Assembly (NCBI GenBank): GCA_030599585.1
Contig: JAUVNS010000031.1
Coordinates: forward strand, 1 to 21,273
DNA length: 21,273 nucleotides
Direction of reading: 5' to 3'
Source: Promethearchaeota archaeon
GTDB taxonomy: Archaea > Asgardarchaeota > Lokiarchaeia > Sigyniarchaeales > SOKP01
Within the stretch, counting starts at the first letter, position 1. Each line of letters starts with the position of its first letter. The notes under the pieces are model-generated. The model did no database searches. It had not been told where the DNA came from and saw only the letters and a program-made list of their open reading frames with translations. This document shows positions 11,084 through 15,063 of this stretch, in pieces. Position numbers and translations under genes: made by a program.

Positions 11084-11863
11084 ATGACTCAAAATACATT
11101 AGTTAGAATAATAAATAAGACTTTCAGCTTAATGCACCTAAGTTATAAAATTAAAAACATTTCAGATAGTAAGAAGAAAATTATGATTCCTTATGATATC
11201 GAAGATGATTTCCTTCAGTTATATTATAAATGTAAAAAATACACAGTATCTACTATCGGAAGCTTGTATTCTCATTATAAAGCAATAATTTTCATAGTAA
11301 AAAACAATATTCCAGGAGATATTGTAGAATGTGGTGTTTGGAAAGGAGGAAGTATGATGCTATGTGCTTTAACTTTATTATCATTGGGTGTTAATGATCG
11401 TAAATTATATTTATATGATACGTATGAAGGTATGAGTAAACCAACTCAATATGACATAAGAGGATTTGATGATCTTAAAGCTGTTTATGAATGGGACAGA
11501 ATGAGAAAATGTGGTGAAAAGTGGCATTTTGAACCTCTTGAAAATGTAAAAAAGAATGTTAATTCCACTCAATATCCTAAAGAGAATATTTTCTTTATAA
11601 AAGGGAAAGTTGAGAATACAATTCCAAGTGTAATCCCTGAAAGGATTGCATTTATAAAACTTGATACTGATTGGTATGAATCAACATATCATGAACTTGG
11701 GTATCTATATCCAAAATTAGCTAAAGATGGAATTTTAATGGTTGATGATTATGGTTATTGGAAGGGATCAAGAAAAGCAGTGGATCAATTCATGGAAGAA
11801 AATAAAATTAAAATATTCTTGAGTAGATATGATAAAACCGGTCGATTAGCAATAAAGCTTTAA
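11084..11863 (+). CDS. TylF/MycF/NovP-family (macrocin-type) SAM-dependent O-methyltransferase
   Basis: Motifs PGDIVECGVWKGGS, LYDTYEG, FIKGKVENTIP, LDTDWYEST and DDYGYWKGSRKAVD. Confidence 0.93.
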   Translation: MTQNTLVRIINKTFSLMHLSYKIKNISDSKKKIMIPYDIEDDFLQLYYKCKKYTVSTIGSLYSHYKAIIFIVKNNIPGDIVECGVWKGGSMMLCALTLLSLGVNDRKLYLYDTYEGMSKPTQYDIRGFDDLKAVYEWDRMRKCGEKWHFEPLENVKKNVNSTQYPKENIFFIKGKVENTIPSVIPERIAFIKLDTDWYESTYHELGYLYPKLAKDGILMVDDYGYWKGSRKAVDQFMEENKIKIFLSRYDKTGRLAIKL

Positions 11864-12113
11864 ATAAATTTTAACTTAAAAAGTTTAATGTGAATTTCTT
11901 CAGCATCTAAGGAATTAAATACAAAATTTGTAATTTTATATCTATCATTCTAATTAAAATAAAGGAAACACTGTTAATCTCAAATTATTCATAAAAACCT
12001 TAAATGACATTGATAGGTTAAAATCTTGAAAGAATATTCATGCAAAAATTGTGGTTAGATAATAAAAAGGAGCTGTATAGGTTACGAACAAGAATGATGA
12101 TGGGTGGTTTTCT

Positions 12114-12812
12114 ATGGTTGAAATTGAAATAAATTCAAATTGCAACCGTAAATGTCAATATTGCCCAAATTCTAAATTAAAAAGAACCAATTTACCTCTC
12201 TATATGGACACCGAATTATTTAATAAGATATTAAGTGAACTAAAAAAAATTAATTTCGATGGAAGAATCTCTTATCATTTTTATGGAGAACCACTTTTGC
12301 ATCCAAATTTAGGAAATTTAATTGAGAAAACCTCAAAAATGTTAAAAAAATCAAGGTTAATTCTTTATACAAATGGAGACTTATTGACTGAAAAAAAATA
12401 TTTAGAATTAGTTAAATCTGGTGTAGACTATTTTGTTGTTACGTCTCATTCATTAAAAACATTTCCGAATCGTCCAAAGCAAATAGTCTTATATCCTAAT
12501 AATTTGCATTTAACAAATCGAGGTGGTGTTATTGGGGTTTTAATTGAACCATTTAAGTTCCCGTGTTTTGCACCAACAACAACTTTAATTATCACAATAA
12601 CTGGTGAAATCTTACTTTGTTATGAAGATGCAAGAAGAGAACATGTATTCGGAAACATTATGTACCAACCATTGGAAGAAATTTGGTATTCAAATAAGTT
12701 TATTGAAATTAGAAAACAACTCGCAAGTGGTAATAGAGAAGCGGTTAATATATGCAAAATTTGCAATAATATCGCTCATTTAGAACCTATAAGATATGAT
12801 TATGTTTTATAA
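12114..12812 (+). CDS. btrN: BtrN-like radical SAM dehydrogenase (2-deoxy-scyllo-inosamine dehydrogenase family, Twitch domain)
   Basis: Cx3Cx2C motif (CNRKCQYCPN), GRISYHFYGEPLL, YTNGD, NRGG, four auxiliary Cys (PCFAP, CYED, CKICNN) and a YDYVL C-terminus. All match the BtrN sequence as recalled. Confidence 0.82.
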   Translation: MVEIEINSNCNRKCQYCPNSKLKRTNLPLYMDTELFNKILSELKKINFDGRISYHFYGEPLLHPNLGNLIEKTSKMLKKSRLILYTNGDLLTEKKYLELVKSGVDYFVVTSHSLKTFPNRPKQIVLYPNNLHLTNRGGVIGVLIEPFKFPCFAPTTTLIITITGEILLCYEDARREHVFGNIMYQPLEEIWYSNKFIEIRKQLASGNREAVNICKICNNIAHLEPIRYDYVL

Positions 12813-12945
12813 GTTTAGTATGATCCTAAATGTTAATTTTAAAAAACATAGTATTTTCATTTCTGAATTATTAATAAATTAATATTTTTAAACAATACTA
12901 ACTTATTTTTTTTACAAGGGTGTAAAACATTTCCATTATTTTATA

Positions 12946-14226
12946 ATGAAGAAAAAAAGCGAAATGCTTGCGATTAAGGGAGGAAAGCCAGTTTGGAACG
13001 GAGTATGGCCAAAATGGCCTGAAATAACAGAAAAAGAGCTTAGTAAAGTTATTGAAGTAATGAAATCCGAAAGATGGGCTATAAGCGGCCCTTCTTTAGG
13101 AAAAATATCTTGGGAAAAAAAATTTAGTATAGCTTTTGCAAAATATTGTGGTGTGAATTATTGCGTTCCAACTTGTAATGGTACAAGTGCTTTATTAATT
13201 GCTTTAGAAGCTCTTAACATTGGTTATGGAGATGAAGTCATTGTTCCAATTTTGACATGGGTGGCAACAGCTAGCGCAGTTACAAATGTCAATGCCATTC
13301 CTGTGTTTGTAGATGTAGATCCGAAAACTTTATGTGTATCTCCTGAAGCGATTAATTCTGCAATAACTCCAAATACTAAAGCCATAATACCTGTCCATTT
13401 ATATTCAGGGATGGCAGATATGGATAAATTATCAAAAATATCATCTCAAAATGAAATTCCAATTATTGAAGATTGTTCTCACGTACATGGTGCTTTATGG
13501 AGGGAATCACCAGCGGGATCGATTGGTAAGATTGGCACTTTTAGTATGCAACAGACAAAGGTTCTGACGGCTGGTGAAGGAGGGGCCACAGTAACAAATG
13601 AAAAATCTCTAGCGAATTATATGGAGCAATTACGTGCAGATGGTAGAATTTTTAAGAAAGGAGTTAATATTTTAGGGGAAATGGATATCGTAAAAATGGG
13701 AGATTTACAAGGTAATAATTATTGTTTAACAGAATATCAAGCAGCGTTATTATATGAAAAATTGAAAACTCTAGATTTACAACATGAAAAAAGATGGAAA
13801 AACGCAAAAATCTTAGATAAATTGCTTTTAGAAATTGATGGAATCGTACCATTATCAACATATAAAAGTGTTAAAAAAAGAGTTTATTACCGTTATGTTT
13901 TTAAAATAAATTCCAAAAAAATTAAAGATAAATCCATAGAAGTTATATGTGGACTGCTATCATCAGAATTGGGGATTTCAGTTGAACCTATTTATAAACC
14001 CCTCAATCAATCAAAAATTTATAATCCCTTAAGTAAGAAAAGGTTCCATATTAATGAAGAACATATTAGAAAATTAAAGACACAAGACTTGAACTTTCAT
14101 AAAGCAGAAAAGGCATATAATTCGTTTGTATCACTCCCCCATAGAGTACTATTAGGTAACTATGAGCATCTTCAAGCAATAGCTGATGCAATAACAAAAG
14201 TGTTAGAAAATATTTCAAATTTATAA
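12946..14226 (+). CDS. btrR: BtrR/StsC-like L-glutamine:(2-deoxy-)scyllo-inosose aminotransferase (DegT/DnrJ/EryC1/StrS family)
   Basis: Generic DegT motifs (GDEVIVP, IIPVHLY, IEDCSH) plus subfamily-type motifs WPKWP, RWAISG, FSMQQTKVLTAGEGG (PLP Lys), QLRADGR and GDLQGNNYCLTEYQAA. Confidence 0.82.
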   Translation: MKKKSEMLAIKGGKPVWNGVWPKWPEITEKELSKVIEVMKSERWAISGPSLGKISWEKKFSIAFAKYCGVNYCVPTCNGTSALLIALEALNIGYGDEVIVPILTWVATASAVTNVNAIPVFVDVDPKTLCVSPEAINSAITPNTKAIIPVHLYSGMADMDKLSKISSQNEIPIIEDCSHVHGALWRESPAGSIGKIGTFSMQQTKVLTAGEGGATVTNEKSLANYMEQLRADGRIFKKGVNILGEMDIVKMGDLQGNNYCLTEYQAALLYEKLKTLDLQHEKRWKNAKILDKLLLEIDGIVPLSTYKSVKKRVYYRYVFKINSKKIKDKSIEVICGLLSSELGISVEPIYKPLNQSKIYNPLSKKRFHINEEHIRKLKTQDLNFHKAEKAYNSFVSLPHRVLLGNYEHLQAIADAITKVLENISNL

Positions 14227-14478
14227 AGTAATAAAAATTGGGTATTAAGTTATTTCTTGAAAGAAATTCCCTTTGGTAATGAATTTTTTAGGTATTTATT
14301 CTAACGAAAATAAACAAAATATATTGAATTCATAATTAAATTCAGAAATTAATGGAATTTAGTTCATTACAATTTAATATTAGTTTATTTTAAGCCAGTA
14401 TTTAAGATAAATTTTAAATTCAAAGTATATTACAAAGTATTGACGCGAAATTTAGTTCTAAAATGATATAATCTTTTT

Positions 14479-15063
14479 ATGGTTAGTTTACGATTAGCAG
14501 CTAAATACTCTAAAAAGAGATTTGAAATGCAAGAAAAAACAAAATTTTTCTATATTTGCGCTATCCTCTCAATTATGCGGGTACCTTTCGCAATTTTAAT
14601 CTTCTTTTTTATTTTCCAGAGGATAATTATTGGAGCATTCATAATTTTTCTTATTGCTGCACTATCAGATATTCTAGATGGCAAAATTTCGCGAAAGTCA
14701 AAACAAGATAGTAGATTAGGATGGATACTTGAAAATATTGTAGATAATGTTCTTTTCTTCTTTACCTTTTTGTCTTTGGCTTTAAATAATTATTTACCTT
14801 ATTGGTTTTTTTCTATTAGCTTAATGATGATTTTTATTCAACTATTTTGTTTTTCACTCCTCGCAAGGGATAAAAATAGAGTAAATTTTGATGAATCATA
14901 CTATTTATACGGGAGCGTTCCTTTTTTTTGGGGCATTCCTATTTTGTTTTTTTTGGGAATTCTTAATAATGTAATTCTTCTTATTGCTACCATTATAATC
15001 TTATTTGCTTCAATAGATCTTTTTTATGAATTTTTTTCAGCTTATGGAAAGAAACTTGAATGA
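14479..15063 (+). CDS. CDP-alcohol phosphatidyltransferase family protein with a variant motif
   Basis: Multi-TM protein with LSIMR. DILDGKISR...G-WIL-E-NIV-D compares with the canonical DxxDGxxAR...GxxxDxxxD. The start may be 14527. Confidence 0.85.
   Translation: MVSLRLAAKYSKKRFEMQEKTKFFYICAILSIMRVPFAILIFFFIFQRIIIGAFIIFLIAALSDILDGKISRKSKQDSRLGWILENIVDNVLFFFTFLSLALNNYLPYWFFSISLMMIFIQLFCFSLLARDKNRVNFDESYYLYGSVPFFWGIPILFFLGILNNVILLIATIIILFASIDLFYEFFSAYGKKLE

Follow-up and report, generated by a model that had tools for sequence, protein, structure and literature searches.

The best-described systems that resemble the genes considered here make the 2-deoxystreptamine core of butirosin/neomycin-type antibiotics with the 2-deoxy-scyllo-inosose (DOI) synthase BtrC, the glutamine:DOI aminotransferase BtrS/BtrR (PDB 2C81) and the DOIA dehydrogenase BtrN (4M7T), for which 2-deoxy-scyllo-inosamine is the characterised substrate. 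Streptomycin and fortimicin biosynthesis follows a logic that leads from inositol via scyllo-inosose to scyllo-inosamine. The rhizopine of Sinorhizobium is 3-O-methyl-scyllo-inosamine, which occurs in a context of bacterial symbiosis and involves enzyme families unlike those described below. On the side of lipid synthesis, archaetidylinositol-phosphate (AIP) synthase and the bacterial PgsA/ClsA enzymes have in common with the transferase described below a Pfam family, a six-TM fold and the signature residues D1, D2, G, R, G and D4. In Bacteroides vulgatus and Prevotella, a predicted “alternative inositol lipid cluster” combines MIPS (myo-inositol-phosphate synthase)-derived cyclitol chemistry with a neighbouring CDP-alcohol transferase and has been proposed to serve head-group synthesis (Heaver et al., 2022; PMC9246714). 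This predicted cluster is a tight, conserved bacterial operon with an NTP-transferase and a HAD phosphatase, whereas the enzymes of the locus described here are non-homologous to it, are not accompanied by an NTP-transferase and do not form a conserved set.

In an Asgard archaeon with a genome of 4.85 Mb, we focus on a 21-kb contig, which was analysed over its whole length and is called the window in the following. Four ORFs lie next to each other on its + strand and encode a TylF/NovP/MycF-family SAM-dependent O-methyltransferase (11084–11863, 259 aa), a BtrN-type radical-SAM (twitch/SPASM) dehydrogenase (12114–12812, 232 aa), a DegT-family L-glutamine:keto-cyclitol aminotransferase of the 2-deoxy-scyllo-inosose/scyllo-inosose type (12946–14226, 426 aa) and an orphan CDP-alcohol phosphotransferase with six TM helices and a non-canonical signature (14479–15063). 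The initial annotation had read these genes as a route to an O-methylated aminocyclitol lipid or solute, and re-reading of the ORF coordinates reproduced the positions, the strand and the gaps of 250, 133 and 252 nt that it gave. The AT-rich first spacer (11864–12113, + strand), which was read directly, matches no Rfam family and lacks any ORF of at least 60 aa. The second (12813–12945, + strand) carries a T9 run just 5′ of the aminotransferase start. The third (14227–14478, + strand) did not match any Rfam family either; the true start of the transferase is probably M17 (14527; 178 aa), as in its only close relative, P0122, and this spacer would then measure 300 nt. The median same-strand gap of the genome is 74 nt, and the first and third spacers lie at about the 85th and the 85th–90th percentile of same-strand gaps, respectively. 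The composition of the contig matches that of the genome (r = 0.992). All four genes are accessory in this host, and 41 congeners either lack them or carry only non-orthologous copies. The TylF and BtrN genes are each single-copy, and the transferase belongs to a set of six paralogues; hence, direct adjacency of the four is unlikely under random placement. An IS element, a defence cassette and protease genes lie on the same contig as well, and clustering of unrelated accessory genes tends to occur in such accessory regions. The four genes are probably a loose accessory group with separate promoters rather than a demonstrated operon.

The two central genes encode full-length homologues with intact catalytic residues. 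The dehydrogenase matches the Pfam families Radical_SAM and SPASM (residues 151–218) and is recognised end to end by the structures of BtrN (4M7T/4M7S, E 1.7e-53), with residues 1–232 aligning to 7–250 of 4M7S. Its radical-SAM motif CX3CX2C (C10, C14, and C17) aligns to that of BtrN and is invariant among 22 homologues, as are the four cysteines of the auxiliary [4Fe-4S] cluster (C151, C169, C214, and C217); all seven Fe-S cysteines are present. The aminotransferase (Pfam DegT_DnrJ_EryC1, E 4.7e-89) matches 5W70 (E 2.6e-112), 5W71 (E 4.4e-110) and BtrR (2C7T/2C81, E 1e-109), so that three solved L-glutamine:2-deoxy-scyllo-inosose aminotransferases score between 1e-109 and 3e-112 as compared to 1e-48 for the next family. 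It is thereby likened to the RbmB type as well as to BtrR (E about 1e-110), and the PLP-lysine of its motif FSMQQ.K, K205, is invariant. The labels BtrN-like and BtrR-like, which both genes had been given at the outset, are thus accurate beyond the family level.

Among 400 genomes of the phylum, three have a BtrN-like gene, and the other two copies share only ~35% identity with the one studied here. Its closest relatives (50–66% identity) are metagenomic or bacterial, the nearest being locus L097, which is linked to a DOI synthase (DOIS). In the aminotransferase tree, the archaeal protein falls into a clade (SH-aLRT 97) with aminotransferases of the aminoglycoside-type clusters L097, L072 and L152, and this clade mixes DOIS-linked (L097) and MIPS-linked (L072) relatives. 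These relationships support the assignment of the pair to a cyclitol-specific clade.

The surroundings of BtrN-like genes were compared in 162 loci (2.1 Mb in total). An aminotransferase lies within 6 kb of the BtrN-like gene in 50 of them and a TylF gene is nearby in one, while a credible CDP-alcohol transferase was found in none. As judged by this comparison, the conserved unit is the BtrN and aminotransferase pair only. The nearest relatives of the pair are found in bacterial aminoglycoside-type clusters with either a DOIS-type cyclase or MIPS: the partner is a DHQS-type (DOI-synthase-type) cyclase in about 35 BtrN/aminotransferase loci and MIPS in 12, including L102, L057 and L072, and at least three exchanges of this partner can be read from each of the BtrN and aminotransferase trees.

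Compared to the 2-deoxystreptamine clusters, the window likewise places the BtrN and aminotransferase genes side by side. However, the homologous bacterial pairs are spaced by 7–70 nt as opposed to 133 nt here, and the Asgard spacers of 133–250 nt contrast with tightly coupled bacterial genes. The genome also lacks a DOI synthase (Pfam and tblastn searches returned no DHQS- or DOIS-family gene), and the GT4 glycosyltransferase, PIG-L deacetylase and resistance gene of these clusters are missing as well. Without a DOI synthase in the genome, the substrate of the BtrN homologue must differ from the DOIS-derived one or be imported. The MIPS-linked loci offer a closer parallel, since the only cyclase of the genome and its sole cyclitol source is one MIPS gene and the window aminotransferase groups with that of MIPS-linked L072. 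Yet, the Asgard MIPS gene resides on a separate contig (C8), and the bacterial loci carry additional functions: L102 a kinase, and L072 a GT4, a B12-rSAM enzyme and an NpmA-type resistance methyltransferase. Moreover, L072, L152 and L049 contain a glycosyltransferase or resistance gene, unlike the window. Gene context suggests that the MIPS-linked loci use inositol, and it is only from the context of these other loci that we infer the use of inositol-derived substrates by BtrN-type enzymes.

The O-methyltransferase upstream of the pair is a clear TylF homologue according to Pfam PF05711 (E 1.3e-38, 133 bits vs. a cut-off of 23) and the structures of NovP (2WK1, E 1.5e-21) and MycF (E 1.6e-17), and it is the sole PF05711 match in this genome. 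Its closest relatives (55–58% identity) are annotated as Promethearchaeota, Lokiarchaeia or Thorarchaeota. Copies in congeners (3 of 41 genomes, 50% identity) are sited in glycan clusters. TylF may thus act on a glycan instead of a cyclitol, as the Asgard origin of its closest relatives and these glycan clusters suggest. The one locus with a nearby TylF gene, L057, has the order TylF-MT-AT-BtrN-(MIPS-GNAT).

The fourth gene belongs to the CDP-alcohol phosphotransferases (PF01066, E 8.4e-16, 59 bits vs. a cut-off of 22), and its AF2 model (pLDDT 89) shows six helices. Foldseek with this model retrieves PgsA (7DRK/7DRJ) first, followed by PIP synthases and AF2299; the top matches are all CDP-alcohol phosphotransferases with a probability of 1.0, though at E-values of only 3e-3. 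The signature reads D-x2-DG-x2-SR-x8-G-x3-E-x3-D instead of the canonical D-x2-DG-x2-AR-x8-G-x3-D-x3-D. Hence, six of eight residues are canonical, Ala is replaced by Ser, and the third Asp by Glu, which retains the carboxylate and might possibly leave the enzyme active. Glu occurs at this position in one of 151 motifs among the nearest kin, namely in the sister protein P0122. Further changes near the active site are P70N, A72V and K74N, and the window protein alone has lost N12 and the conserved K127 (K127L), both of which are retained in P0122. In a search of 1.84 billion representatives, P0122 alone scored below E 1e-30, and an orthologue of the transferase was found in none of the 41 congeners. 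The other paralogues of the genome are four AIP-like proteins (74–159 bits with NF040950) and one PssA-like protein. The protein stays below all equivalog cut-offs, the best NCBIfam matches being ClsA (NF053678, 42 bits vs. 240) and PgsA (TIGR00560, 38 vs. 109), with 30.5 bits vs. 180 for the AIP-synthase equivalog NF040950. An ordinary PgsA or AIP synthase was rejected based on these scores. The distant kin all match PgsA/ClsA-type rather than inositol-type families, and by these sequence criteria the transferase is an orphan that is PgsA-like rather than AIP-synthase-like. Taken together, the initial annotation identified all four enzyme families correctly.

We consider the BtrN and aminotransferase genes to represent a horizontally acquired two-gene aminocyclitol module, which here would have lost the cyclase, glycosyltransferase, deacetylase and resistance genes of its bacterial counterparts. 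The rarity of BtrN in the phylum (3 of 400 genomes) and of TylF (3) and the transferase (0) among the 41 congeners supports an accessory character and horizontal acquisition. The BtrN-type enzyme would need neither O2 nor NAD to oxidise a ring CH-OH to C=O, and the glutamine-dependent keto-cyclitol aminotransferase would convert C=O to CH-NH2. In this way, the pair would most likely make a mono- or 1,3-diamino-cyclitol, of either scyllo-inosamine or streptamine type, from myo-inositol-derived scyllo-inosose/inosamine. An inositol-derived aminocyclitol would be the likeliest product of the pair because the genome has one MIPS and no DOI synthase. TylF might O-methylate a ring hydroxyl, as adjacency and the independent TylF-AT-BtrN-MIPS arrangement in L057 suggest. 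The predicted product, an aminated and O-methylated inositol, would be of the same molecule class as the rhizopine. The transferase would be separate from the module, and its coupling to the aminocyclitol has less than an even chance. For this explanation as a whole, we see about an even chance of being correct. Furthermore, a pseudo-oligosaccharide antibiotic is not made by the window since it contains no glycosyltransferase, deacetylase or resistance gene, which agrees with the earlier view that the product is not a secreted antibiotic.

That four accessory genes follow each other on the same strand with nothing intervening would also fit a single four-step pathway, in which inositol is oxidised, aminated and O-methylated and the orphan transferase couples the product to CDP-archaeol, yielding a cationic phospholipid, or to a CDP-polyol, yielding a phosphodiester solute. 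Congeners have no orthologue of any of the four genes, the host produces inositol phosphate and encodes four AIP-synthase-like paralogues, and there is no glycosyltransferase for making an aminoglycoside. That the transferase fits no known equivalog and is altered near the active site is what a new acceptor specificity might need, and K127L could, speculatively, suit a cationic phosphate-free acceptor. However, the combination does not recur: besides the missing transferase in the 162 loci and the single TylF neighbour, the closest relatives of the transferase (P0122), BtrN and TylF lie on three different contigs (8126, 11658, and 8872 bp), so that the synteny expected elsewhere for such a pathway was not found. 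The first and last gaps (250 and 252–300 nt) reach or exceed about the 85th percentile, the distant kin of the transferase are PgsA/ClsA-type, and Glu in place of an otherwise invariant metal-binding Asp together with the N12 and K127 losses of the window copy hints at relaxed constraint. The window also encodes no cytidylyltransferase and no kinase that could activate the cyclitol or add a phosphate to it, and no aminocyclitol phospholipid was found in the searched literature. Thus, of the proposed route the aminocyclitol chemistry is supported, given the cyclitol clade of the pair and the presence of MIPS, while its link to a lipid or solute is a conjecture based on adjacency in view of the missing co-occurrence, the separate contigs, the long gaps and the PgsA/ClsA-type kin. 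We regard the four-step pathway as possible but unlikely.

The pair might instead be an inactive remnant, given its DOIS-linked nearest BtrN relative L097 and the missing cyclase: a fragment of an aminoglycoside cluster without substrate, next to a TylF gene and a transferase that are unrelated neighbours without any functional link. The nearest BtrN relatives are mostly DOIS-linked, and the genome has no DOIS. The long spacers, the IS element, defence cassette and proteases on the contig, and the differing phyletic affinities of TylF (Asgard-like), the pair (bacterial-like) and the transferase (orphan) are in line with this. Yet, neither ORF is disrupted and every catalytic residue is kept, the GC content of the pair has drifted to the low level of the host, which argues for long residence under selection, and MIPS-fed versions of the module exist elsewhere, so that a substrate would be available. 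A remnant seems rather unlikely. Very improbable is the tailoring of an N-glycan or surface-polysaccharide sugar by anaerobic oxidation, amination and O-methylation through TylF, the BtrN-like enzyme and the aminotransferase, with the transferase making an ordinary phospholipid: congener TylF and the two other Asgard BtrN-like genes (~35%) do lie in clusters with GT2, GT1, PIG-L, CMP-sugar synthetase-like and GFO/IDH/MocA genes, but the window pair belongs to the cyclitol/aminoglycoside clade outside this 35%-identity glycan clade and the 21-kb contig contains no glycosyltransferase, nucleotidyltransferase or flippase.

The borrowed, inositol-fed aminocyclitol pair with a plausible TylF step and a separate transferase thus remains the preferred reading. 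A pair that normally belongs to bacterial aminoglycoside-antibiotic pathways is real in this genome and unusual for archaea. It is distinctly doubtful that a transferase re-tooled by the Asp to Glu exchange and the loss of the pocket Lys installs the O-methylated aminocyclitol as a cationic archaeol head group. If true, this would be a lipid class undescribed in any organism, built in an Asgard archaeon from parts of a bacterial antibiotic pathway.

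All four genes lie on the + strand of contig C17, which the window covers in full (21,273 bp) and which is one of 52 contigs of the 4.85-Mb Asgard genome G000. They encode a TylF O-methyltransferase (11084-11863; Pfam TylF, E 1.3e-38), a BtrN-like radical-SAM (rSAM) protein (12114-12812; Pfam Radical_SAM and SPASM), an aminotransferase of the type acting on 2-deoxy-scyllo-inosose (DOI) (12946-14226; Pfam DegT_DnrJ_EryC1, E 4.7e-89) and a CDP-alcohol phosphotransferase (14479-15063; Pfam CDP-OH_P_transf, E 8.4e-16). ORF coordinates and Pfam assignments agree with the initial annotation, including gaps of 250, 133 and 252 nt, and all four gene identities hold. 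The rSAM protein can be aligned to BtrN over its entire length (4M7S/4M7T, E 1.7e-53) and contains a CX3CX2C motif plus four more cysteines, all invariant across 22 homologs. For the aminotransferase, the best solved structures are three L-glutamine:2-deoxy-scyllo-inosose aminotransferases (E 1e-109 to 3e-112), with the next DegT family sixty orders of magnitude worse. The PLP lysine is retained. The labels "BtrN-like" and "BtrR-like" were thus well chosen: the end-to-end match, the E values and the retained catalytic residues place the two proteins in cyclitol-specific clades, beyond generic family matches. Our literature searches found no BtrN-type enzymes or DOI-type aminotransferases described in archaea.

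Wrong binning of C17 can be rejected, since its tetranucleotide profile matches the rest of G000 (r = 0.992) and its GC content (29% vs. ~32%) is that of other AT-rich contigs; a binning error is therefore unlikely. Other genes of the contig encode a transposase, peptidases and a CHAT-LRR cassette and mark it as an accessory region. For same-strand gaps in G000 (ORFs of at least 100 aa), the median is 74 nt and the 75th percentile 162 nt, and the three gaps of the cluster fall at approximately the 85th, 68th and 85th-90th percentile, respectively. Its intergenic spacers are AT-rich, and neither an Rfam match nor a hidden ORF or small gene was found in them. Judged from these distances and sequences, the four genes likely have separate promoters. 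Within positions 12900-12945, a T9 run (ttattttttttacaagg) precedes the start codon of the aminotransferase gene by 30 nt, where it could serve as an archaeal oligo-T terminator for BtrN transcription or belong to the promoter region of the aminotransferase.

The four genes have different affinities: TylF has Asgard nearest relatives, those of the BtrN/aminotransferase pair are bacterial or metagenomic, and the transferase stands alone as an orphan. Among 400 genomes of the phylum, three carry a BtrN-like gene; the two genes outside G000 are ~35% identical and situated in glycan-type contexts. The pair is rare in Asgard archaea, and its affinities are bacterial. No counterpart of the transferase exists in 41 congeners, and across the 134 genomes of the taxonomic family only 3 give matches (28-34% identity). 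TylF is single-copy in G000 and present at 50% identity in 3 of the 41 congeners; its nearest relatives are Asgard genes (55-58% identity) within a family of >7,500 members, and the annotated ones belong to Promethearchaeota and Lokiarchaeia. This sparse occurrence across phylum, family and congeners indicates that all four genes are accessory. The congener TylF copies reside in clusters with GT2, GT1, GNAT, PIG-L and a phosphodiesterase accompanied by a different rSAM/SPASM protein. In congeners G256 and G263 (L185:2323-9960 and L186:7434-12360; GT2, GNAT, PIG-L deacetylase, GT1), the phosphodiesterase/sulfatase-family protein adjoins a 366-aa rSAM/SPASM protein, a pairing that looks like an anaerobic-sulfatase-maturase arrangement.

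The initial annotation proposed that all four genes build an O-methylated aminocyclitol lipid headgroup or solute, a reading under which TylF and the transferase should accompany the btrN/btrR pair in other genomes as well. We surveyed 162 BtrN-like loci (2.1 Mb), comprising 80 from GTDB genomes, 80 from JGI metagenomes and two Asgard loci, using as tblastn queries the four proteins from the window and the five other G000 CDP-alcohol transferase paralogs, together with a six-frame motif scan whose regular expression was wide enough for the variant transferase signature of the window (positive control). While a DOI-type aminotransferase is near BtrN in 50 of the 162 loci, TylF was detected in one (L057, 27% identity) and a credible CDP-alcohol transferase in none by either approach. 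The L162 motif match was spurious, and the L156 candidate is a weak AIP-like tblastn match 8 kb away from BtrN. The expected co-occurrence is thus essentially absent, which speaks against the proposal. More indirectly, the database relatives closest to the transferase (P0122, 79% identity), BtrN (P0002, 66%) and TylF (P0273, 57%) are each on their own single contig (8126, 11658 and 8872 bp, respectively) and therefore not collinear in those assemblies. Hence, neither the transferase nor TylF has a conserved link to the pair.

Unbiased clustering of neighboring genes in the surveyed loci revealed which partners the pair does have. Its closest relatives have a DHQ-synthase (DHQS)-family cyclase directly upstream, as in L097, where cyclase, aminotransferase, BtrN and a class-III aminotransferase follow each other with spacers of 10-40 nt. 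The cyclase is found in ~35 loci, and myo-inositol-1-phosphate synthase (MIPS) takes its place in 12, demonstrating that MIPS-fed versions of the module exist in other genomes. Gene orders of such loci are MIPS, aminotransferase, BtrN, BtrN and APH-type kinase (L102); TylF, methyltransferase, aminotransferase, BtrN and a MIPS-GNAT fusion (L057); and MIPS, NpmA-type 16S rRNA methyltransferase, aminotransferase, methyltransferase, GT4, BtrN, rSAM and B12-rSAM (L072, a Solidesulfovibrio). L072 appears to be typical of aminoglycoside-type clusters, including a marker for self-resistance.

L072:4366-14224 is on the chromosome of Solidesulfovibrio sp. DCME, a sulfate reducer and strict anaerobe, and its NpmA-type enzyme is a 16S rRNA A1408 methyltransferase. 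The metagenomic operon L102:7491-12483 has two tandem BtrN-like genes between the DOI-type aminotransferase and the APH-family kinase, and resembles an anaerobic pathway to an aminocyclitol phosphate, fed by inositol and using a separate rSAM dehydrogenase for each oxidation step. L057:10699-12777, from a Thermoanaerobaculia MAG, encodes a 692-aa fusion of a MIPS domain and a C-terminal GNAT domain (Acetyltransf_6) directly after BtrN; GNAT (Acetyltransf_6) and carbamoyltransferase genes are also downstream of BtrN in an Acidobacteriota/Devosiaceae group. BtrN-like genes of Xenorhabdus and Photorhabdus (L023-L030; 48% identity) have a DHQS-type cyclase ~3.4 kb upstream but lack a DOI-type aminotransferase within a distance of 10 kb (E<=1e-4), which implies a different amination partner or product. 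A large clade from the predatory Bdellovibrionota (L045-L096 and many JGI loci; 36-43% identity) has no cyclase in its surroundings and no strong DOI-type aminotransferase either.

A quick BtrN tree leaves the window protein without a resolved position close to the base, its nearest row being L097. In the aminotransferase tree, the window sequence belongs to a clade (SH-aLRT 97) with DOI synthase (DOIS)-linked L097, MIPS-linked L072 and L152 (GT4, PIG-L). Given the well-supported branches of the two trees, the cyclase partner must have changed at least three times, and because DOIS- and MIPS-linked members interleave, the trees cannot tell which cyclitol is used. Pfam and tblastn searches of G000 detected neither a DHQS nor a DOIS gene, but the genome has one MIPS gene (contig C8). 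From this gene content we infer, as the most economical reading, that the pair in G000 works on inositol-derived substrates. Its product would then be an inositol-derived aminocyclitol, which TylF might O-methylate, as adjacency and one independent locus suggest.

The transferase probably starts at M17, as in P0122. Its confident AlphaFold model (pLDDT 89, pTM 0.83) has six helices and best matches S. aureus PgsA, followed by PIP synthases and AF2299. In line with the initial annotation, it is not an ordinary PgsA or AIP synthase, an assignment we reject on NCBIfam equivalog scores that are all far under the cut-offs (ClsA 42 bits, PgsA 38 bits, AIP synthase 30 bits). Searched exhaustively with HMMER, 1.84 billion representatives contained a single relative at E<1e-30 and five at E<=1e-10, and scanning metagenomes for the transferase revealed none. 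All of the distant kin were assigned to the PgsA/ClsA type. The signature of the window transferase, D-x2-DG-x2-SR-x8-G-x3-E-x3-D, departs from the canonical one (Heaver et al., 2022; PMC9246714). Of 151 motifs among the nearest kin, only that of P0122 shares the Glu in place of the third Asp. The lineage also carries P70N, A72V and K74N, and N12A and K127L, at sites that are 94% and 86% conserved and kept in P0122, are confined to the window copy. The transferase is thus an orphan with a variant motif, in the fold family but off its catalytic signature. Its acceptor is not readable from sequence and might, if anything, be of the glycerol-phosphate rather than the inositol type. The other G000 paralogs are one PssA-like and four AIP-like enzymes with no clear PgsA-type AGP synthase among them, and the repertoire suggests that inositol-type head-group chemistry is diversified in this Asgard lineage. 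The AIP-synthase-like paralogs on C40, C9, C45 and C20 (L003-L006) score 74-159 bits, all below the 180-bit equivalog cut-off.

With no conserved link between transferase and pair, attachment of an aminocyclitol to a lipid or solute by this enzyme is not supported, and it is unlikely that all four genes form one pathway. Literature searches found nothing on aminocyclitol phospholipids or on CDP-alcohol transferases acting on aminocyclitols; a CDP-inositol-based cluster in Bacteroides is predicted and unconfirmed (Heaver et al., 2022; PMC9246714). If the orphan transferase did use the product of the pair, this would constitute a new cationic archaeal lipid head group and bear on membrane adaptation in archaeal relatives of eukaryotes, a claim that the evidence at present does not carry. 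What the Asgard genome does contain is the pair, intact and adapted in composition, with no other parts of an antibiotic cluster, showing that this anaerobic "hydroxyl to amine" cassette is reusable beyond aminoglycoside synthesis. Across many bacterial phyla, the enzyme feeding the cassette has changed repeatedly, being a DOI synthase in some loci and an inositol-phosphate synthase in others, so that a wider range of natural aminocyclitols is to be expected.
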